From Alphaproteobacteria bacterium (GTDB lineage: Bacteria; Pseudomonadota; Alphaproteobacteria; JAJTHO01; CANGXP01), in assembly GCA_947457935.1 (NCBI GenBank), contig CANGXP010000005.1:2511-66510 (forward strand): 64,000 bases of DNA, written 5' to 3'. Below, piece by piece: positions 478 to 63,449 of the stretch. The position numbers and the translations under genes are program-made. The notes under the pieces are model-generated. The model did no database searches and was not told the origin of the DNA. It saw only the letters and a program-made list of their open reading frames with translations. The number at the start of each line of letters is the position of its first letter. The stretch's first letter is position 1.

Positions 478-933
478 GTTCTAAACTCCTTTTGATAGCC
501 TCTGCAAGCATTGCTGCAGCGCGTAAATCTCCTGCCGATAAGTCGTCTTTTTCATTCTTGCCATACGCCGTGATAAGCGTTAGCGGCAACCGTTCATCAT
601 AGTAAAAGTAGATAACCCTTGCGCCGCCACGTTTTCCCCGTTGCTTTGATTGCCAACGCATAGTCGTTTCAATTTAAAATTACCCATAGCCGAAAACGAG
701 TGCAGCGGCGCGAAGTGTACCTCTTCGTACATGAGAGACGCTAAAGGAAGTTTGCAGGCATGGGTAATTTTAAAGTGGAATAACTATAGCTTGCGTACAC
801 CGCCTGAACCCTTAATCACATCCCCCGCCAAAGGATTGACTGACAGAAACATCTTGAGGGCTTCCACTTGCTCTTCTGTAAACAGCTTTTCAGCTTGTTT
901 GGTAAATTCTGGTGTTTCGGCAACGGTAAGCAT
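458..933 (-). pseudogene. RelE/HigB-family toxin gene interrupted by a 129-bp palindromic element
   Basis: The minus-strand N-terminal fragment (933 down to about 787) reads MLTVAETPEFTKQAEKLFTEEQVEALKMFLSVNPLAGDVIKGSGGVRKL and stops at a TAG created at the element junction. The C-terminal fragment (661-458) reads MRWQSKQRGKRGGARVIYFYYDERLPLTLITAYGKNEKDDLS, a typical RelE/HigB core. Removing the element and one TA restores an in-frame ...GGVRKLRWQSK... ORF. Confidence 0.6.
659..788 (+). mobile_element. Palindromic MITE-like element copy 1 (about 129 bp, TA target)
   Basis: Termini are TAGTCGTTTCAATTTAAAATTACCC ... GGGTAATTTTAAAGTGGAATAACTA, flanked by CA/TA. The copy is homologous over its full length to the copies at 3410, 7883 and 63319. 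Confidence 0.6.
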
Positions 934-1612: not shown

Positions 1613-3418
1613 TCAAGCCGCCAACCCTTCCCCCCAGCCCCGTGTCTCCGCCGTGGGCAGCATCACATCCTCAATAAACACTTGCGGCGTGGGGGTTTTG
1701 CCCCATGTATCCAGTTTTAACGTGCCCGCAATATGCAACGGCTTACCTTGGTTGGAGAGCAACACCTGCCCGATATTCTGGTCAAGGGCACGGAATGCCA
1801 TCGCTTTCACGGTAAAAGCGCGGTCTTTATCTCCCAACACACACCGCACATGATTATCCCCCACAACGGCGGCTTGGCGAATAATCACCTCAGGCAACAA
1901 AAACCGTGGTTGCGGATTGCCCGCCCCAAACGGCGCGAGTTGCTCTAATTTTGTGATAAAGTCCGCTGTGATGCCCTTAATGTGCATTGTGCCATCTAAA
2001 TGCAACAGCGGCGTAATATTCTGTGCAGCAATAAGGCGTTGCACCTGTTCTTCTAAGTAGTCTGTGAAGACAGGCAGCATGCTTGCATGGATACTAAACC
2101 CCGCCGCCATTTCATGCCCACCACCAGCCAACAACATCTCTTGTTGCCGTGCGGCAATCACTAAATTGCCCAAATGCACGCCACTCACCGAACGACATGA
2201 TGCCTTACCAATCCCTTTTTCATCAAAGGCTATTACGCAGGTTGGCAGGTGATACCTTTCTTTAAGACGTCCCGCTACAATGCCAATCACCCCTGCGTGC
2301 CACCCCTGCCCTGACACAATCAACACACTTCTTTTACTCGCCGCGTCATTGGTAAGAGCCTCTGCCTGCACCAATGCTTCACTTAAAACAGTATATTCAA
2401 TGGCTTTTCGCTCTTTGTTAAACTCTTCTAACAGCGTTGCAATGTGCTGTGCTTCGGCAGGATTTTTCGTACTCAGCAATTTTGCGCCTAAATCCGATTG
2501 CCCCACACGCCCCCCTGCATTGATCCGTGGACCCAACACAAACCCTAAATGATACGCCGTCGGCACTTCCTTAACACCCGCCGTATCCATCAGCGTTTTC
2601 AGCCCCAAATTTTGCCGATTTGCCATCACTTTTAAGCCTTGCGCCACAAAAGCTCGATTCAGCGTGGTCAGACTCACCACGTCACACACGGTGCCTAGCG
2701 CCACAATATCGAGTAAATTAAGCAAGTTAGGCTTTTTTGTTTGTGTAAAAAACCCCCGCGCTTCCAAAATGGTGTTGGTCGCAATCAGCAACAAAAACAC
2801 CACGCCCACGGCCGCTAAGTGCTTATAATCACTGTCTTCATCAAACCGATTCGGGTTCACCACCGCCACCGCCGCTGGCATGGTTAACTCACTCGCATGG
2901 TGATCAATCACCAGCACTTCTAACCCACAGTTTTTGGCGGCCTCAAGGGGGGCAAATGCCGTGGTGCCACAATCAACGGTAATCACCAAGTCAACGCCTT
3001 CTGCCCGCAGCTTTTCTAGTGCAGGCGCATTAGGACCATACCCCTCTTTCATGCGGTCAGGCACATACAATTGAATGACTTGCCCTAACATCTGAAAGTA
3101 ATTTAATAGCAATGCAGAAGAAGTTGCGCCATCTACATCATAATCACCCCACACTGCCACCGATTGCTTGCTGATAATTGCTTCAGCTAATCTATTCGCT
3201 GCCGCTTGCATATCTTTGAGATGCAATGGATTTGGCAGCGCATCTTTGAGACGCGGCTCTAAAAACCCCTCCGCCTCTTCTAAGCCAATATTGCGCGCCG
3301 CGAGCAGCTGCCCCAAAACCACAGGCAGTTGAAATCGTTGACTCAACGCTAACGCAAGGCGTTCATCATGCGGTTTAAAGCGCCACGTTCTAGCAGAGGC
3401 TGAAAGCATTATAATCAT
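1613..3418 (-). CDS. recJ: Single-stranded-DNA-specific exonuclease RecJ
   Basis: 601-aa protein with DHH and DHHA1 family sequence features (VITVDCGTTA, DHH). The alternative start at 3409 (MLSAS...) is more likely. Either start lies inside element copy 2. Confidence 0.9.
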   Translation of the reverse strand: MIIMLSASARTWRFKPHDERLALALSQRFQLPVVLGQLLAARNIGLEEAEGFLEPRLKDALPNPLHLKDMQAAANRLAEAIISKQSVAVWGDYDVDGATSSALLLNYFQMLGQVIQLYVPDRMKEGYGPNAPALEKLRAEGVDLVITVDCGTTAFAPLEAAKNCGLEVLVIDHHASELTMPAAVAVVNPNRFDEDSDYKHLAAVGVVFLLLIATNTILEARGFFTQTKKPNLLNLLDIVALGTVCDVVSLTTLNRAFVAQGLKVMANRQNLGLKTLMDTAGVKEVPTAYHLGFVLGPRINAGGRVGQSDLGAKLLSTKNPAEAQHIATLLEEFNKERKAIEYTVLSEALVQAEALTNDAASKRSVLIVSGQGWHAGVIGIVAGRLKERYHLPTCVIAFDEKGIGKASCRSVSGVHLGNLVIAARQQEMLLAGGGHEMAAGFSIHASMLPVFTDYLEEQVQRLIAAQNITPLLHLDGTMHIKGITADFITKLEQLAPFGAGNPQPRFLLPEVIIRQAAVVGDNHVRCVLGDKDRAFTVKAMAFRALDQNIGQVLLSNQGKPLHIAGTLKLDTWGKTPTPQVFIEDVMLPTAETRGWGEGLAA

Positions 3419-3539
3419 TCCACTTTAAAATTACCCCTGCCTGCAAACTTCCTTTAGCGTCTCTTCTGTACGAATAGGTACATTTCGCGCCGCTGCAGTC
3501 GTTTTCGGCTATGGGTAATTTCAAATTGAAACGACTATA
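3410..3539 (-). mobile_element. Palindromic MITE-like element copy 2
   Basis: TA-TAATCATTCCACTTTAAAATTACCC ... GGGTAATTTCAAATTGAAACGACTA-TA. The core is reverse-complemented relative to copy 1. It overlaps the 5' end and start codon of recJ. Confidence 0.6.
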
Positions 3540-3702
3540 CGAGAGGCGGGAGAATAATGTTAAAATTACAAAACCCTTGTCTTTACTGTGCATATTGCGT
3601 ATGGAAACGCAACGTAAAAGGTAACGGAGCCTAGAGGATGGCACTTTTCTCTCGCCTCTCGCCTCCCGCCTTTTGCCTCCCGCCTCATTCAGGAATAAAG
3701 CC

Positions 3703-4761
3703 ATGCACCCCACTCTTAAACCAGCCACCCCGTCTTTAAAAGAAGAACTTCTTGCCAATGTTGTAGAACACATTGATATTACATCTTTTGATGCGCGTCC
3801 GATTGTGGATGCTATGGCGAAAATGTCGTTCACCTCGCGGGATCTGGCGAAAGCGGCAGACATTTACAACAAGATGCTGGCGGACAAAGACTGTTCTATC
3901 ATCCTCACCATCGCGGGGTCAACCTCGGCGGGCGGCTGCATGGATCTCTATGCAGAACTCATCAAAAACAACATGGTAGACGCGATTGTTGCCACAGGCG
4001 CAGCTATTGTGGACATGGACTTTTTCGAGGGACTAGGCTTCAAACACTACCAAGGCACGCCGTTCATTGATGACCGCGTCTTGCGCGATAACTATATCGA
4101 CCGTATTTATGACACCTATATCGATGAGCAAGACCTGCAATCCACCGATCACCTGATTAAAGATATTGCCGATAGCCTCCCCGCCAAAGCCTATTCTTCC
4201 CGTGCATTCATCCGCGAAATGGGGCGTTACCTCAGCAAAAACGGCAAAAAAGAAAATTCTCTGGTGAAATTGGCGTTTGAGCACAATGTGCCTATCTTCT
4301 GCCCTGCTTTCACTGATTCTAGCGCGGGTTTTGGTTTAGTAGTTCACCAAGTGGAACAAGCTAAAGCTGGCAAACCCTACCTCACCATTGATTCTATTGC
4401 CGATTTCCGCGAACTTACCGAGCTAAAAATCAAAGCCAACGTCACAGGCTTGCTGATGATTGGCGGTGGTGTGCCGAAAAACTTTGCGCAAGACACCGTT
4501 GTATGCGCTGAAATCTTAGGACATGACGTGCCGATGCACAAATATGCGGTGCAAATCACCGTTGCGGATGTGCGCGATGGCGCGTGCAGCAGCTCCACCC
4601 TTAAAGAAGCCTGCTCATGGGGCAAGGTGGATACAACGTACGAGCAAATGGTGTTTGCAGAAGCCACCAGCGTGTTGCCACTCCTTGCCAGCGATGCCTA
4701 CCATCGTGGCTACTGGAAAAACCGCCAAAAACGGGCGTTTGGAACGATGTTCGGAGAGTAA
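3703..4761 (+). CDS. Deoxyhypusine synthase-like protein (possible homospermidine synthase-type enzyme)
   Basis: Deoxyhypusine synthase family similarity along the full length. AGGAA ribosome-binding site 8 nt upstream of the ATG at 3703. First gene of a polyamine cluster. Confidence 0.75.
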   Translation: MHPTLKPATPSLKEELLANVVEHIDITSFDARPIVDAMAKMSFTSRDLAKAADIYNKMLADKDCSIILTIAGSTSAGGCMDLYAELIKNNMVDAIVATGAAIVDMDFFEGLGFKHYQGTPFIDDRVLRDNYIDRIYDTYIDEQDLQSTDHLIKDIADSLPAKAYSSRAFIREMGRYLSKNGKKENSLVKLAFEHNVPIFCPAFTDSSAGFGLVVHQVEQAKAGKPYLTIDSIADFRELTELKIKANVTGLLMIGGGVPKNFAQDTVVCAEILGHDVPMHKYAVQITVADVRDGACSSSTLKEACSWGKVDTTYEQMVFAEATSVLPLLASDAYHRGYWKNRQKRAFGTMFGE

Positions 4762-4767
4762 AAAACA

Positions 4768-5976
4768 ATGGATTCCGTCCTTATTATTGGTGCAGGGGCA
4801 GCAGGTGCCGTTGTTGCGAAGAAATGCGGCCTCAACCGCGACATTTTCAAACACATTCACCTTGCATCCCGCACGCTGTCTAAGTGCGAGAAAATTCAAA
4901 AAGAATGCGCCTCTCCCATCACCATCTCACAACTTGATGCAGATGACTCAACGCAAACCATTGCCCTCATCAATCGCATCAAGCCCCACCTTGTCATTAA
5001 CATGGCATTGCCGTATCAAGATCTTGCCATCATGGATGCTTGCCTTGCAACAGGCGTGCATTACATGGACACCGCCAACTATGAACCCAAAGACGTTGCC
5101 AAGTTTGAATATTCTTGGCAATGGGCATACCAAGAGCGTTTCCGTGAAAAGGGCTTAATCGCTATCTTAGGCTGTGGTTTTGATCCGGGGGTTACGAATA
5201 TTTTTTGTGCTCACGCCCAAGAAGTACTGTTTGACGAAATCCACACCATTGATATTATTGATTGCAATGACGGCAACCACGGCAAAGCCTTTGCCACCAA
5301 TTTTAATCCTGAAATTAACCTGCGGGAAGTCACCCAGCGCGGCAAATATTGGAAAAATGGCGAGTGGATTGACATTGACCCGTTAAGCATTGCCTGCATG
5401 ATTGACTACCCCGAGGTGGGCGCACGCAAAAGCTACCTCATTTACCATGAGGAAGAAGAATCCCTCGTGCAAAACATTAAGGGCTTGAAGCAAATCCGCT
5501 TCTGGATGACGTTTTCTGATAACTACATCAAACACCTCGATGTGCTGCAAAACATTGGCATGACGCGGATTGACCCCGTGCGCTTTCAGGGCATCGACAT
5601 TATCCCCATTGAGTTCTTAAAAGCCCTGTTGCCCGAACCCTCCTCTTTGGCGGAGAATTATAGCGGTAAAACCTCCATCGGCTGCATTATCCAAGGGATA
5701 AAGGACGGCAAACAGGTGCGTCACCTGATTTACAACGTGTGCGACCACGCGATGTGCAACAAGGAAGTGCAAGCGCAAGCCGTGTCCTACACCACAGGCG
5801 TGCCGCCCGTTGTGGGTGCAATCATGCTCTTTCAAGGGCATTGGCAGGGCAACGGCGTGTTTAACGTGGAACAACTCCCCGCTCAACCATTCTTGGCAGA
5901 ACTCACCAAGCAAGGCTTGCCGTGGCACATATGGGAACTCAAAGAAGCAGAACAAGCGGCTTTGTTTGCTGTTTAA
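4768..5976 (+). CDS. Carboxynorspermidine/carboxyspermidine dehydrogenase (saccharopine dehydrogenase family)
   Basis: N-terminal Rossmann motif IIGAGAAGAVVA and overall saccharopine dehydrogenase-like layout. Directly followed by the decarboxylase gene. Confidence 0.8.
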   Translation: MDSVLIIGAGAAGAVVAKKCGLNRDIFKHIHLASRTLSKCEKIQKECASPITISQLDADDSTQTIALINRIKPHLVINMALPYQDLAIMDACLATGVHYMDTANYEPKDVAKFEYSWQWAYQERFREKGLIAILGCGFDPGVTNIFCAHAQEVLFDEIHTIDIIDCNDGNHGKAFATNFNPEINLREVTQRGKYWKNGEWIDIDPLSIACMIDYPEVGARKSYLIYHEEEESLVQNIKGLKQIRFWMTFSDNYIKHLDVLQNIGMTRIDPVRFQGIDIIPIEFLKALLPEPSSLAENYSGKTSIGCIIQGIKDGKQVRHLIYNVCDHAMCNKEVQAQAVSYTTGVPPVVGAIMLFQGHWQGNGVFNVEQLPAQPFLAELTKQGLPWHIWELKEAEQAALFAV

Positions 5977-7203: not shown

Positions 7204-7887
7204 ATGAACGACATCCTCAAAGAAGCCCAATCAGACCTCACCCAAGAAAAACTGCGCGTTTTCTTCCAAAAACACACGGGCAAATTGGTAGGCGGTGTGG
7301 TGGTAGTATTGCTCTCAGCGGGGGCAGCAAGCTGGATGCACAGCGAAAAACAAGAAAAACTCGAAGCCCTCAATGTGCAATATCATGCCGCCGAAAAATT
7401 CATTGCGGAAAGCAGCCTTGCCGAAGCCAGCAACACGCTGGATGCACTGGCAGATCAAGAAGGAAAACACGGTTTTGGTACACTCGCTCGTTTCCGCAAG
7501 GCATCCTTATTGCTGATACAAAACAGAGAAGAAGAAGCGCAAAAAATTTACGCAAAACTCGCTAAAGACGGCAGCATTTCCCCTTCTTTACGCGAGTACG
7601 CGAGTATTTTATACGCCTACGGTGCGCTGAACACACAAACGGGCATTGATGCCGATACAACCAAACAACTCACAAAAATCATTGACGATAAAGGGGCGTG
7701 GAAATTTGCCGCGCGTGAGATTCTCGCGCTGCAAAGTCTGCAAGACCTGAAGAAAATCTCTAACCCTGATGAAAAGCGCGTTCAAGAAACTGCGGAGAAA
7801 TTCCAAAGTCTCACAGAAGAAGCCGAAATCCCCAGTGCAATGAAACAACGCGCCGAAGCCATCCTCACTGTGCTCCCCCAACTATAG
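7204..7887 (+). CDS. YfgM-like membrane-anchored TPR protein (UPF0070)
   Basis: N-terminal TM helix followed by an alpha-helical TPR-like body. Conserved position upstream of bamB. Its TAG stop lies inside the terminus of element copy 3. Confidence 0.6.
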   Translation: MNDILKEAQSDLTQEKLRVFFQKHTGKLVGGVVVVLLSAGAASWMHSEKQEKLEALNVQYHAAEKFIAESSLAEASNTLDALADQEGKHGFGTLARFRKASLLLIQNREEEAQKIYAKLAKDGSISPSLREYASILYAYGALNTQTGIDADTTKQLTKIIDDKGAWKFAAREILALQSLQDLKKISNPDEKRVQETAEKFQSLTEEAEIPSAMKQRAEAILTVLPQL

Positions 7888-8011
7888 TCATTCCACTTTA
7901 AAATTCCTCATGCCTGCAAACTTTCCTTAGCGTCCCTCATGTACAAAAGGTACACTTCGTGCCGCTGCGGTCGCTTTCGGCTACGGGGAATTTTAAATTG
8001 AAACGACTATA
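7883..8011 (-). mobile_element. Palindromic MITE-like element copy 3
   Basis: TA-TAGTCATTCCACTTTAAAATTCC ... GGAATTTTAAATTGAAACGACTA-TA with clean TA duplication. It fills the whole yfgM-bamB intergenic region. Confidence 0.65.
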
Positions 8012-8034
8012 CAACCAAAAAATAAGGGGCTTTT

Positions 8035-15468: not shown

Positions 15469-15621
15469 TTGTTACGATCCTGTTAACTATTTTTTCATTA
15501 TGAGTAATTTTATTACAAAAAGCAAGATTATTTTGTTTGTAAGTTATACGTCGTGAGGGTTAAAAAAGTATTAGCGATGCAGCATAAAAAATCGATATGA
15601 TTATAAAAAAAGATCTCTCTG

Positions 15622-16124
15622 TTGACCTGAAACGCTTGTTTTGCAACGCTTTCAGCCGATTTTTTATCGAAAAATAAAATTGCAAGTCACTGATATATAA
15701 TAATATTTTTTGTAAGTAGTAGTGTACGAAAAAATAATAATTTTGCAGGATGACCTGAAAGGTGCTTTTTTCCTTGTTCTTAGCCGATTTTCTGCAAAAA
15801 TTATTATCGCTAAGCCATTGACAAATAATATTATTCTCTGCGATGTGTTTTGTAAGAAAAATACCTTGTTATGCAAAATGGCTTGAAAGCCGCCTTTTTC
15901 CTTGCTTTCAGCCGATAATGTGTAAAAAGCCACATACGCAACACATTGATAAACAACATTATTTTTTAATTGCACTCGCTATAAAAAATATTTCCGTCAT
16001 CAAGTTGCCTTAAGAAGGGCTTTTTTCTTGCCTTTCAGCCGATTTTCCCACCTCAATTTTTGCGTTTTTCATCAACACAAGTACTGTTGCGGAAGTGCCT
16101 ACAGTTTGCTACCGTGTGCGGATT
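15622..16124 (+). repeat. Tandem array of four degenerate ~127-bp direct repeats upstream of glyQS
   Basis: Units start at 15622, 15751, 15879 and 16005. Each begins TTGACCTGAAAG/TGGCTTGAAAGC/TTGCCTTAAGAAGG followed by a T-rich stretch and CTTTCAGCCGAT. Units 1-3 also share an internal ATTGA(C/T)AAA(T/C)AA(T/C)ATTATT segment. Confidence 0.6.
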
Positions 16125-19100
16125 ATGACACAGCCCCTCTCGTTCCAAAACATCATTCTCACCCTCCAGAAATTCTGGGGAAACCAAGGCTGTGCCTTGC
16201 TTCAGCCATATGATGTGGAGATGGGCGCGGGCACCTTTCACCCCGCAACAACCCTAAGATCTTTGGGCGAACAGCCGTGGCGCGCTGCCTATCCCCAACC
16301 CTGCCGCCGCCCTACCGATGGCCGCTATGGCGAGAACCCTAACCGCCTTCAGCACTACTATCAGTTCCAAGTTATCATAAAACCCTCGCCTGCCAACATC
16401 CAAGAATTGTATCTAGAAAGCCTGAAAGCCTTAGGAATAGACATTTCTAAGCACGATATTCGGTTTGTGGAAGACGATTGGGAAAGTCCTACTTTGGGGG
16501 CAGCGGGTCTTGGTTGGGAGGTGTGGTGCGATGGCATGGAAGTCACGCAATTCACCTATTTCCAGCAGGTTGGCGGCTTTGATTGCGCGCCCGTTTCTGC
16601 CGAGATTACCTACGGATTAGAACGCCTTGCCATGTATATTCAAGGCGTGGAGAATGTGTATGATTTGATTTACGTTGAAGGGGATAGGCACGAGGCACGA
16701 GGCACGAGGGAAGAAATGATTTCCTCTTCTCGCGCCTCGTGCCTCGAGCCTCTTACCTATGGAAACGTCTTCCTCCGCAACGAACAAGAATTTTCCGCCT
16801 ATAATTTTGAGCACGCAACCACCGAAAAGTTATTCCAACACTTTGCTGATGCCGAGCTAGAATGCCAGCACTTGCTCGCACAAAACCTTGCCCTGCCTGC
16901 CTACGACCAGTGCATCAAAGCCAGTCATACCTTTAATTTGCTGGATGCACGGCGGGTGATTAGTGTTTCCGAACGCGCCAGCTACATCGGGCGGGTACGC
17001 GCTCTTGCCAAGGGATGTTGCGAGGCATGGCTTGCGAAAGCGGCAGCAAGCAACAATCTTCAAGGTGCAGCACAAGAAAAAACTTTCTCCAATCCCCAAA
17101 CTCCAAACCTGAAAACCGAAAACAGCTTTTTATTGGAACTCCTTACCGAAGAAATCCCCGCACGGATGCAGCAAGCGGCACGGGCAGATTTATTACGGCT
17201 ATTCACGCAAAAGCTGGAAAAGCGCGGTATTACAGGGTTTAACGCAACAAGTTGTGTCACGCCACGCCGCCTTGCGTTGTTGGTGGAGGGCTTACCTGCC
17301 GCACAACCCGCCACCACGGAGGAACGGAAGGGCCCCAAAGTGGGCGCACCACAACAGGCGTTGGATGGCTTCTTGCGGAGTGCGGGTATTGAGGCAAGTA
17401 CGCTAAAACCTGTTCACAATCTCGCTAGACTGCAAGCGAAAATTGATGTTCCCGAGAACCAGCGCGCAGTGTATCCTTCATACATGAGCACTGGAAGCGC
17501 AGAGAACATCAATTTGCAGCAAGGTATAGTAGAGAGTGGGGATAGGTTTTTAGAACAGCGTGATGACGGCAAAGGCAACCTCTATTATTACGCGACGTTA
17601 CGCACGCCAGAAACCCCGCTTTCTGGGGTTCTTCCCGTTGTTATCAGTGAAATTTTGCTAGAATTTGCATGGGCAAAATCCATGCGTTGGGGCAATGGCG
17701 CGTTCCGTTGGGTGCGTCCGTTGCAAAATATTTTGGCGGTGCTGAATGGCGTACCGCTCGCGGGCGGCTTTGACCTTGGCAATCATCTTGAGAACTACCC
17801 TGCTGGCTATGTGACCGAATGGCATAGCGGGCAAACTGTGTTGGTGTTTAATAACACAACGGTGGGGCATCGCGTTCATGCGCCTGAAGCATTGCAAATC
17901 AACACGCCGCAAGAATATTTGAGCGCACTGCGTAATGCCTCTGTTGAGCCATGCGTTGAGGCACGCAAAAAGAAAATTATTGAGCACGCAACATTGCTTG
18001 CACCCAAGGGTTTAACCATTGATTTTAATGAGAAATTATTGGAAGAAGTGGCGGGCTTAAATGAGCATCCCGTGCCGTTATTGGGGCAAATTGACGCGAA
18101 ATTTATGACCGTGCCGCCTGAAATTCTCACCACAAGCATGGCGAGTCACCAGCGGTATTTCGCGTGTTATGATGCCGCTGGCACACTCCAGCCCTATTTT
18201 ATCGCGGTTGCCAACCAAAACAGTGATGATGCGGGTCTCGCCATTATTCAAGGCAATGAAAAAGTGCTCCGCGCCCGCCTGTTTGACGCGGCGTTTTTCT
18301 GGGAAAACGATAAAAAGCAAGCTGTTGAACGGGGTATGGAGAGCTTCCTTGAGCCGCTGAAGAACGTGGTGTTTCATCAGGGTTTGGGGACGGTGTATGA
18401 CAAGGCGATGCGGATTGCTGCCCTTGCTATGTCCTTCGCTGACGTTGTAGGGGGCGATGCATCTCACATACACAAGGCAGCCCTCCTTGCCAAAGCAGAC
18501 CTTTCCAGCGGGGTTGTGGGGGAGTTCCCCGAATTACAGGGGATTATGGGGAGTTATCTAGCAACGGCAGCGGGGCTAGATAAAAATATCGCTCTTGCTA
18601 TTCGTAAGCATTATCAGCCGATTGGTGATAGCCCTGTGCCTGCCAACCCTGTGAGTGTGGCGATTGCCTTAGCCGATAAAATGGACACGCTGGTGGCGTT
18701 TTTTGCGATTGGCGAAAAGCCTACGGGTTCAAAAGACCCGTTCGCGTTGCGCCGTGCCGCGATTGGCATTATTCGGTTGATTGTGGAAAATAAACTTCCT
18801 TTAAGCATTAAAAATTTAGTTCTGTGGGGATGCATTGAGTTTCAGCATCAGCATATAAAACCAATAGATGGCAGCGTTGTAGACGATTTAACAAACTTCC
18901 TTAAAGATCGCTTCGTGGTCTACCTCCGCGATACCCACACTCTCCGCCCCGACATCATTCACGCTGTTTTGGCTGCACAACCACAGTTTGGTGACCTTGT
19001 TGCCCATAAACAGGCGATTGAGCAAACACAAGCGTTTCTTGCTTTGAACCCGAATGCGCCTGCCTTAGTGGCGGGGTATAAACGGGCGGTGAATATCCTA

Positions 19101-19406
19101 AACATTGAAGAGAAGAAAGATAAACGCCGCTATGACGGCATTGTTGACGCGGCATTGCTGCAAGACGCTGCGGAAAAGGCATTGGATGCAGCGTTAAACG
19201 CTGTGACCACAGCGCTTGCAACAACAGCGGACTACACCGCAATGCTGGAGCAACTCGCAACCCTGCGCCCCGCCATTGACGCGTTTTTCACCGAGGTGTT
19301 GGTGAATAGCGAGGATGTGAGCGTGCGGGAAAATCGCTTGTTTATGTTGCACTCGTTCCGCGCACTCGTGCAGCGCGTGGCGGATTTTGGCGGGGTGGAG
19401 GGGTAA
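16125..19406 (+). CDS. glyQS: Fused glycyl-tRNA synthetase alpha+beta subunits
   Basis: The N-terminal ~300 aa align to GlyQ ([36 protein letters not shown]). After a short linker the sequence continues as GlyS ([16 protein letters not shown] ... [16 protein letters not shown]). It is a single uninterrupted ORF. Confidence 0.9.
16688..16751. repeat. Imperfect ~64-bp palindrome embedded in-frame in the glyQ portion
   Basis: GGCACGAGGCACGAGGCACGAGGGAAGAAA-tgatttc-CTCTTCTCGCGCCTCGTGCCTCGAGCC. It encodes about 18 extra residues ([18 protein letters not shown]) relative to E. coli GlyQ between VYDL and YG(D/N)VF. Confidence 0.6.
17400..17550 (+). mobile_element. Decayed in-frame copy of the 129-bp palindromic element inside the glyS portion
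   Basis: CAGCGCGCAGTGTATCCTTCATACATGAGCA...AATTTGCAGCAAGGTATAGTAGAGAGTGGGGAT aligns to the element core (CAGCGGCGCGAAGTGTACCTCTTCGTACATGAGAGA...AGTTTGCAGGCATGGGTAATTTTAAAGTGGAATG). GlyS is about 43 aa longer than E. coli GlyS at exactly this position. Confidence 0.45.
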
Positions 19407-29090: not shown

Positions 29091-29122
29091 AAAGCCTCTT
29101 ATGAAAATAAGAGGCTTTTTTG
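29091..29122 (+). terminator. Rho-independent terminator after coxA
   Basis: AAGCCTCTTA-tgaaaa-TAAGAGGCTT followed by TTTTTT. Confidence 0.6.
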
Positions 29123-35315: not shown

Positions 35316-35586
35316 TATAGGTCTTTACCGATACAAAAAATGTAGCCACACCTGCCGTTGAGTGATTGATTCCACAGACCCTATATAATAGGTGGGTGCC
35401 AGATGATAAAAACCACGGTTCTTACCAGCGCCAGATCCCTGTGAAATCGTATGGACCGAGGAATGACAAAACCCTATCGCACAGGGCAGCTACATCAGAC
35501 ACTATACAACAAACCGCCGCCCAATACAACTTTGCATTAGGGCTGTTTTTCTGCTATGGTTAATGTTCACATTAGGGAGAAACGTC

Positions 35587-43777: not shown

Positions 43778-43812
43778 TATAGTCATTCCACTTTTAAATT
43801 GAAATGACTATA
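43778..43812. mobile_element. Core-less mini copy of the palindromic element (termini only)
   Basis: TA-TAGTCATTCCACTTTTAAATTGAAATGACTA-TA. The two terminal repeats are joined directly, with no core and intact TA flanks. Confidence 0.55.
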
Positions 43813-43822
43813 CTTGAAAAAC

Positions 43823-56612: not shown

Positions 56613-56676
56613 GATTAATATTTTTCCGTTGCTTACATCAAAAATATTTCAGACTGCTAAAAATTCTTTATTGAGT

Positions 56677-56758
56677 CTGGATACCAGCTTTCGCTGGTAA
56701 TTCGCCACTCTCGCAAGGATTATCTGCGGTGCGCTTACCAGCGAAAGCTGGTATCCAG
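56677..56758. repeat. Perfect 24-bp inverted repeat with 34-bp spacer
   Basis: CTGGATACCAGCTTTCGCTGGTAA ... TTACCAGCGAAAGCTGGTATCCAG. Each arm also contains its own CCAGC-tttc-GCTGG hairpin. It lies between pntB and the amidotransferase gene. Confidence 0.7.
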
Positions 56759-56789
56759 AAATTAAACAGTGATTAATTGTTTTTGCCTC

Positions 56790-63227: not shown

Positions 63228-63318
63228 AAAGGAGGCAAGAATAGATGGGCAGGAGGAAAGAGAAAAGGGATTATCTAGAAAACTTCTAGCCTTCTGCCTT
63301 CCAACTCCCGCCTCGTTT

Positions 63319-63449
63319 TATAGTTATTCCAAAACAAAATTACCCGCTGGCGAAAACAACCGCAACCGAGCGAAAGTGTACATCTTAGTACATGAGCGAG
63401 GTTAAGGGAAGTTTGCAGTCGTGGGTAACTTTGTTTTGGAGTGACTATC
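63319..63449 (+). mobile_element. Palindromic MITE-like element copy 5 (divergent)
   Basis: TA-TAGTTATTCCAAAACAAAATTACCC ... GGGTAACTTTGTTTTGGAGTGACTA-TC. Core homologous to copy 1. It ends one base before the recA stop codon. Confidence 0.55.

Follow-up and report, generated by a model that had tools for sequence, protein, structure and literature searches.

Rickettsia palindromic elements (RPEs) are palindromic repeats of 100-150 bp that lie inside open reading frames (ORFs) without breaking them and, in so far as the work of Ogata et al. (2000, 2002) is summarised in PMC10969869 and PMC3767692, they run from RPE-1 to RPE-10. RPE-1 to RPE-3 often occur in genes (PMC10969869, PMC3767692), and the beta subunit of PheRS was one of three templates employed in homology modelling of RPE-carrying genes (PMC3767692). 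Here we describe an in-frame palindromic insertion in a 64,000-nt stretch of DNA from an alphaproteobacterium (assembly GCA_947457935.1, contig CANGXP010000005.1, positions 2,511 to 66,510 of the forward strand), referred to below as the window. The inserted element, of 144-145 nt, lies within the glyS part of glyQS, a fused gene for the two subunits of glycyl-tRNA synthetase (GlyRS).

Two other groups of small bacterial repeats invite comparison with this element. Transposable elements of the miniature inverted-repeat type (MITEs) that generate a TA-type target duplication include the Neisseria Correia elements (CREE) as well as MITEs that stem from the insertion sequences (IS) IS630/Tc1 or IS5 (IS1031/IS427 group). 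Bru-RS1 and Bru-RS2 of Brucella, which Halling and Bricker are said to have reported in 1994, are palindromic repeats of ~100 bp located between genes.

The gene, the inserted DNA and its borders are positioned as follows, together with the contig used for comparison.

16095-19406, plus strand: fused glyQS ORF, 1103 amino acids from the GTG at 16095, taken from the ORF list.
17406-17552, plus strand: inserted DNA, 147 nt or 49 codons, comprising the element and one copy of the target duplication.
17403-17405, plus strand: left target-site copy, CTA, with TA at 17404-17405, read from the sequence.
17550-17552, plus strand: right target-site copy, TTA, with TA at 17551-17552, read from the sequence.
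L001: contig of the sister genome, carrying the sister glyQS (product P0002).

The glyQS product combines the GlyRS alpha and beta subunits in a single chain. A database protein identical to it, P0001, which begins at the ATG at 16125, shows the Pfam domains PF02091, PF02092 and PF05746 of both GlyRS subunits, and the gene is therefore a fused glyQS. P0001 is encoded by four contigs and its cluster sources are ENA and NCBI, and this speaks against an assembly chimera. The sole close relative in a set of 5.8 billion clustered proteins is P0002, with 76% identity over the whole query (BLASTP) and 85% over the aligned columns, and beyond it the identity of GlyQS relatives does not exceed 48%. The contig encoding P0002 is labelled 'MAG: Alphaproteobacteria bacterium ... 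3300042517_group7_bin76', where MAG denotes a metagenome-assembled genome, and we refer to that genome as the sister. Comparison of the two genes yielded a dS of 0.67 and a dN of 0.093 and, therefore, with a dN/dS of 0.14 that averages both branches, glyQS has been under purifying selection; restricting the comparison to within 60 codons of the insert in either direction gave 0.14 again. Residues of the window GlyQS are listed at the columns that do not vary among 117 homologues, and glyQS is probably the essential GlyRS of the cell.

Nucleotide alignment of the window glyQS with L001 revealed a single clean gap of 147 nt. The empty site of L001 reads GAG GCA CGT GCC TTA GAA GAA and the occupied site of the window reads GAG GCA AGT ACG CTA [AAACCTG...AGGTTT] TTA GAA CAG. 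The sister carries a single unscarred TTA, and the T-to-C change in the left copy of the window is synonymous (Leu); the ends fit two readings, either a TA duplication with an element of 145 nt, or a TTA duplication with an element of 144 nt followed by the synonymous change in the left copy. In protein alignments the 49 residues (KPVHN...GDRFL) are missing from P0002 and from 115 other fused GlyQS proteins, and the homologues mostly carry 4, and at most 13, residues in the corresponding columns. As the segment is lacking in all of the outgroups, it was inserted in the window lineage and not deleted in the sister, and the event, judged from these sequences, would postdate the split of the window lineage from its closest sequenced relative.

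Translation of the 147 nt in six frames shows that five hold one to three stop codons and that the sole open frame is in the phase of glyS. In other family copies any given frame is open in just 6-25 of 111, which makes the open frame the result of filtering rather than a trait of the family. The original prediction, made from the letters of the window and its ORFs, had placed an extra segment of about 43 residues in this part of glyS; a lineage-specific insertion does occur close to the position that was given, and relatives lack it as had been anticipated, but it extends over 49 codons at 17406-17552. That the segment is stop-free, frame-preserving palindromic repeat DNA was also foreseen, and is borne out by the clean gap relative to L001 and by the single open frame.

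The insert has the following structural parts.

17405-17423, plus strand: left terminal inverted-repeat arm AAAACCTGTTCACAATCTC, 19 nt and 79% complementary in an inverted-repeat search.
17532-17550, plus strand: right terminal inverted-repeat arm GAGAGTGGGGATAGGTTTT, from the inverted-repeat search, giving an end-to-end hairpin.
17440-17451, plus strand: inner arm AAATTGATGTTC, pairing at 12 of 12 positions with 17504-17515.
17504-17515, plus strand: inner arm GAACATCAATTT, the partner of 17440-17451.
17468-17519, plus strand: conserved superfamily core AGTGTA-N7-TACATGAG-N24-TTTGCAG, found as a pattern match.

Folded as single-stranded DNA, positions 17404-17552 form one hairpin whose outermost pairs are the ends of the element, with an energy of -29.1 kcal/mol (z -5.5) that was not equalled in any of 200 shuffles, and the RNA fold reaches -54.3 kcal/mol (z -6.1). 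The core, which holds an apical stem-loop GTGTA/TACA, consists of columns with little or no variation among 39 aligned copies. Among 68 full-length family members, which have a median length of 145 nt, the insert ranks tenth with 52 base pairs spanning the centre, the family median being 47. An RNAalifold analysis of the 39 copies indicated that 32 of 43 consensus pairs change on both sides yet stay paired, and the insert follows these compensatory changes, for example with an A-T pair at the CCAG/CTGG position. Moreover, where it departs from a shorter type of element in the window (the 127-nt elements, see below), its two arms still pair with one another, and such co-variation is expected of a member of a sister subfamily and not of a copy that has accumulated independent mutations. 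The insert is structurally intact, and the label of a decayed copy, which the original prediction had attached to it, has to be dropped.

The family was delineated with a search pattern for the shared core, AGTGTA-N7-8-TACATGAG-N12-30-TTTGCAG, which was scanned over one genome for each of 185,579 species. At least 116 DNA stretches were recovered (loci L003-L118) and, among the matches listed, every named one is alphaproteobacterial; they include Brucella/Ochrobactrum, Rhizobium, Allorhizobium, Mesorhizobium and Phyllobacterium, as well as Sphingobium, Devosia and Hyphococcus, and MAGs labelled Rickettsiales, Holosporales/Holosporaceae, Rhodospirillales and Magnetococcales. Rhizobiales and Sphingomonadales are among the orders represented, next to the Rickettsiales and Holosporales MAGs. 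A BLAST search with the family consensus against 72,556 plasmids gave 34 records, from alphaproteobacterial genera only. A profile built from 111 foreign copies matches the insert at 17409-17550 over model positions 3-143, with 77.8 bits and E = 9.6e-24, and this is its top match in the window.

In pairwise comparisons the insert is identical at 101/126 and 99/125 positions (~80%) to copies from a Rickettsiales MAG (L056, L076) and at 102/135 (76%) to an intergenic copy in locus L042, and a 17-nt stretch of its left arm, AACCTGTTCACAATCTC, recurs exactly at the terminus of the L042 copy. L042 is syntenic with window positions 1615-5972 at 83-86% identity and comes from the same metagenome as L001 (3300042517), and therefore very probably belongs to the sister genome. 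Taken on sequence, the insert is best placed as a full-length, 144-145-nt member of a sister subfamily within an alphaproteobacterial palindromic superfamily with elements of ~145 nt. A core of ~90 nt in this superfamily is more conserved across orders than are the termini. Some copies are flanked by TCA, TTA or TGA when read by eye, which suggests a TNA duplication, and others have TA flanks; TA and TNA flanks extend the palindrome, which defeated an automatic count of target duplications.

The superfamily appears to be undescribed. No Rfam family matched the element at the gathering score, either in the window or in eight loci from other genera, and a full-text literature search for strings of the core sequence produced nothing relevant. 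When metagenomes were scanned, there were no matches to the exact terminus of the insert combined with GCGAAAAT; the core of the subfamily was found on 16 contigs whose accessions all begin with SXGT or SXGU, similar to the SXRF prefix of one Rickettsiales MAG, and their 19 copies all lie between genes. A search for a cognate insertion sequence in the fetched loci, a weak negative as it covered only ~1 Mb of flanking DNA, detected no second inverted terminus at 0.6-3 kb. A parent transposase may be of the IS5/IS1031-like or IS630-like type, with ends that would begin AAACCTGTTCAC.

The window also carries a short subfamily of the same superfamily, represented by four copies.

657-788, plus strand: 127-nt element of the short subfamily, intergenic, superfamily profile E = 6.8e-9.
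3410-3541, minus strand: 127-nt element of the short subfamily, intergenic, superfamily profile match.
7882-8013, minus strand: 127-nt element of the short subfamily, intergenic, superfamily profile match.
63318-63449, plus strand: diverged copy of the short subfamily, intergenic, superfamily profile match.

These four copies, of ~127 nt plus TA, score 19-30 bits against the superfamily profile, the low scores arising because about 18 core positions are missing, and a 127-nt intergenic element of the window also folds end to end (z -5.6). Besides these four, the window has the single 145-nt copy in glyS, and the probable sister genome has the L042 copy with the same 17-nt terminus. An nhmmer profile of the four copies, run with filters off and E <= 100 on the whole window and on 17380-17570 alone, did not detect the insert, on which ground descent from these copies was rejected, and a direct comparison gave only 55/81 identical positions (68%). 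In Smith-Waterman alignments with the 127-nt consensus, the glyS region came top among the segments that are not copies of the element (out of 1344 segment-strand combinations, under four scoring schemes), which points to a real but distant relationship between the insert and the 127-nt elements. A mini-palindrome of 36 nt at 43778-43813, TATAGTCATTCCACTTTTAAATTGAAATGACTATA, is made up solely of the 127-nt element's two ends and looks like an internally deleted copy.

A search of PDB with phmmer aligned the flanks of the insert to Escherichia coli GlyS (7YSE, 7EIV), the left flank corresponding to beta-subunit residues 92-102 and the motif LYYYATL beginning at residue 116, which locates the insertion point at about residues 103-107, inside the B2 domain (66-124). 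B2, at residues 66-124, comprises a three-stranded sheet and helix H2 and is 'stretched out' from B1, and a distal conserved patch on it matches the tRNA-elbow-binding region of a CCA-adding enzyme (Ju et al., PMC8464048). In the tRNA complex the density of B2 is weak and the domain is dynamic (Han et al., PMC9908026). An AlphaFold2 model of GlyQS, generated from an alignment of 117 sequences, has a mean predicted local distance difference test score (pLDDT) of 88.7 and a predicted template modelling score (pTM) of 0.84, with three segments of pLDDT <50, namely the alpha-beta linker and model residues 431-471 and 553-569. Residues 431-471 fall inside the insert (428-476) and are modelled as coil lacking secondary structure, and the insert is flanked confidently by a helix at 410-419 and a beta-hairpin at 474-494. 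Alignment and model thus place the insert in a connecting stretch of a small and mobile accessory domain, where it is probably a disordered loop that would lie at the protein surface. A second lineage-specific segment of the beta part, of ~22 residues (window ~17780-17850, ORF residues ~563-579, model residues 553-569, pLDDT <50), is common to the sister and to the distant homologue P0003, and its DNA gives no hairpin signal.

We consider, with a probability of roughly 0.85, that a MITE-like palindromic element of the ~145-nt superfamily inserted in frame into glyS and that it is read through and tolerated in B2. A non-autonomous element of 144-145 nt would have transposed into glyS, where its target was the TA in a TTA (Leu) codon, with duplication of TA or TTA. 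Element and duplication would together have added 147 nt, and with one stop-free frame in the phase of glyS the gene would have stayed open. The product would thereby have gained a loop of 49 residues between helix H2 and the next beta-hairpin of B2 in the beta moiety, an insertion that B2 could tolerate because it is a small, mobile and protruding accessory domain, and the enzyme presumably remains active. As RNA the segment can fold into a 145-nt hairpin within the coding region.

Several observations weigh against this scheme. The target duplication is just 2-3 nt long and its left copy is one base off (CTA rather than TTA). The sequences of the profile were collected with a pattern derived from the window, so that its score is partly circular; a control was run for this reason, in which the 21 pattern bases were masked and the left arm alone still gave E = 3.6e-4 against the whole window. 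A cognate transposase was not found, nor was a second copy of the insert's exact subfamily in the window. About 140 other family copies that were examined are intergenic or merely overlap the ends of genes, so coding insertion is rare, and this one may have happened by neutral chance and mean nothing for function. A contact of B2 with the tRNA elbow has been proposed, and an insertion there may not be innocuous. The segment is predicted from its sequence to be translated, and with 64 kb of the genome covered, a second GlyRS may be encoded elsewhere, which would render glyQS dispensable.

This last point belongs to an alternative with a small chance of being correct, in which glyQS is not a working GlyRS, being a recent pseudogene or redundant, or in which, at the RNA level, the hairpin is excised or prevents expression and the 49 residues never form part of an active enzyme. 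The hairpin is very stable as RNA (-54 kcal/mol) and hairpins of this kind can be cleaved by RNase III, as are Correia elements in Neisseria, and another GlyRS could be encoded beyond the 64 kb. Nevertheless, the ORF of 1103 codons is intact with its residues listed at the columns invariant across the homologues, the dN/dS of 0.14 includes the flanks of the insert, and the only open frame of the element is the phase in use; we also know of no mechanism of RNA excision and re-ligation for such elements. The parentage favoured by the original prediction has a very small chance. It held that the insert is a decayed copy of the 127-nt element (at 657, 3410, 7882 and 63318), the element plus its TA forming a unit of 129 bp, or 43 codons. 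The two blocks of similarity to the element core that it had quoted do exist, glyS has the top Smith-Waterman rank among regions that are not copies of the element, and both types of element match the same superfamily profile. The arithmetic applies to the 127-nt copies of the window and fails for an insertion of 147 nt, the four-copy profile finds no match even at E <= 100, and 68% identity over just 81 nt compares poorly with 76-80% over 125-135 nt to other copies of the subfamily. Furthermore, its arms pair mutually where they differ from the 127-nt elements, as in the 12/12 pairing of AAATTGATGTTC with GAACATCAATTT, which is the opposite of independent decay, and the completeness of the hairpin lies above the family median.

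The remaining alternatives are fainter still. Cut-and-paste elements can excise and one close relative was compared, so the 49 residues might be ancestral and precisely deleted in the sister; the chance of this is slight in the extreme, given that none of the 115 more distant fused GlyQS proteins has the segment, that the sister site is a single unscarred TTA, and that the segment is a genuine member of a repeat family with its other copies between genes. An ordinary lineage-specific expansion loop, with a resemblance to the repeats that arose by chance or through an assembly artefact, would accord with the up to 13 residues that other GlyQS proteins carry in these columns, a sign that the site tolerates variation in length, but its likelihood is close to nil in view of the profile match (E = 1e-23, and 3.6e-4 with the pattern masked), a hairpin that beats 200 of 200 shuffles, and the identical protein on four contigs.

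Other copies of the family were inspected for coding insertions, and none of about 120 in the fetched genome loci lies within a convincing gene. Long ORFs that run across copies in L034, L112, L049, L072 and L017 look spurious and are typical of high-GC DNA, and an in-frame candidate in L016 was rejected since the gene starts downstream of the element. On a plasmid of Shinella sp. (NZ_OZ000532.1, L135 2501-2617) a copy overlaps the 3' end of the coding sequence for a pyridoxal-dependent decarboxylase, to which it supplies the final ~21 codons and the stop codon.

Two further in-frame palindromes, both unrelated to the 147-nt insert, were seen in the glyQS genes themselves, giving three separate ones over the two sister genomes. 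The glyQ part of the window gene contains a palindrome of 82 nt at 16679-16760 (plus strand), built from the heptamers (AGGCACG)x3, a loop, and TCGCGCC, TCGTGCC, TCGAGCC and TCTTACC, which encodes ~23 residues and is the second strongest hairpin in a scan of the window (z -4.9); it is also present in the sister, where it is 9 nt longer, is missing from the 115 other GlyQS and lies outside the 145-nt family. The glyS of the sister has a palindromic in-frame insert of its own, of ~150 nt, near the C-terminus (L001 ~3938-4095, CTGGACCCCTGCCTTCGCAGGGGAT ... ATCCCCTGCGAAAGCAGGGGTCCAG), which replaces 18 nt encoding TTALAT in the window (~19195-19215); its stem-loop CCTGCGAAAGCAGG also occurs, in a different arrangement, in R. 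conorii RPE-6, a weak lead.

The hairpin scan of the whole window revealed no in-frame palindromes outside glyQS, and the other strong hairpins that were checked against ORFs, near 29,100, 45,700, 56,700 and 58,300, lie between genes. The scan's largest outlier (z -6.5) is a very strong intergenic hairpin at 56676-56760 with a stem of ~25 bp (TCTGGATACCAGCTTTCGCTGGTAA ... TTACCAGCGAAAGCTGGTATCCAGA), which is unrelated to the element family. Upstream of glyQS, at 15560-16070, there are four degenerate AT-rich units, ~66% identical and with a period of 128 nt, each containing CTGAAAG-N-CTTTCAGCCGATTTT, a short hairpin with a T-run after it; this 128-nt array escaped Tandem Repeats Finder. A 6S RNA gene is located at 35339-35495 (minus strand; Rfam RF00013, 60.9 bits).

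Of the described systems, the Bru-RS repeats resemble the element in being palindromic, and many matches to the family pattern lie in Brucella/Ochrobactrum. Identity with them was considered and rejected, as none of 224 B. melitensis Bru-RS sequences (PMC2267715 supplement) holds the TACATGAG core, and the two look unrelated. The likeness to MITEs comprises a length of 100-155 bp, inverted repeats at the termini, TA as the insertion site together with a 2-3-nt duplication, no coding capacity of its own and many intergenic copies; the glyS insert itself is shorter than ~300 bp, carries no transposase gene, is bounded by terminal inverted repeats and has a duplication with an empty site in a relative. 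It differs from MITEs in that the entire element, and not its ends alone, forms the hairpin, in that conservation across orders is stronger in the internal core than at the termini, an unusual feature for a MITE, and in that no cognate transposase was identified.

The closest parallel is with the RPEs, in that an alphaproteobacterial palindrome of 100-150 bp lies in a pre-existing ORF of a housekeeping gene, with the frame kept and at a site where the peptide would be compatible with the fold. The host differs, being an uncultured alphaproteobacterium, with a sister MAG from the ME (Rohwer) metagenome series, and neither Rickettsia nor Wolbachia, and the R. conorii RPE-4, -5, -6 and -7 (PMC2267715 supplement), to which the sequence comparison is limited, lack the TACATGAG core. 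A further difference is that the present case shows both a TA/TTA duplication and, in the sister genome, the empty site. With these, the end-to-end hairpin and the profile match, the event is of the known RPE-like kind, as the original prediction had recognised for an essential aminoacyl-tRNA synthetase gene, and it involves a different element family.

It is also possible, although we would put it forward only tentatively, that palindromes repeatedly colonise coding sequence in this lineage, that the superfamily is old and constrained by structure, with a core that implies an undescribed function or mechanism of mobilisation, and that it could relate to the origin of RPEs. If so, these bacteria would offer an environmental system, outside Rickettsia and Wolbachia, for testing how selfish hairpin DNA creates protein segments. 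Inserts of this type are a potential source of error in the annotation of genes, in orthology calls and in structure modelling for MAGs. The in-frame insertions reported for Rickettsia are mostly common to orthologues at the same site, which makes the event hard to reconstruct, whereas for glyQS an empty site can be seen together with the target duplication, a hairpin that is intact and close relatives of the element. Protein-coding palindromes thus extend beyond Rickettsia and Wolbachia, and the locus provides an unusually clean example of a mobile element that adds a peptide segment to what is probably an essential translation enzyme.

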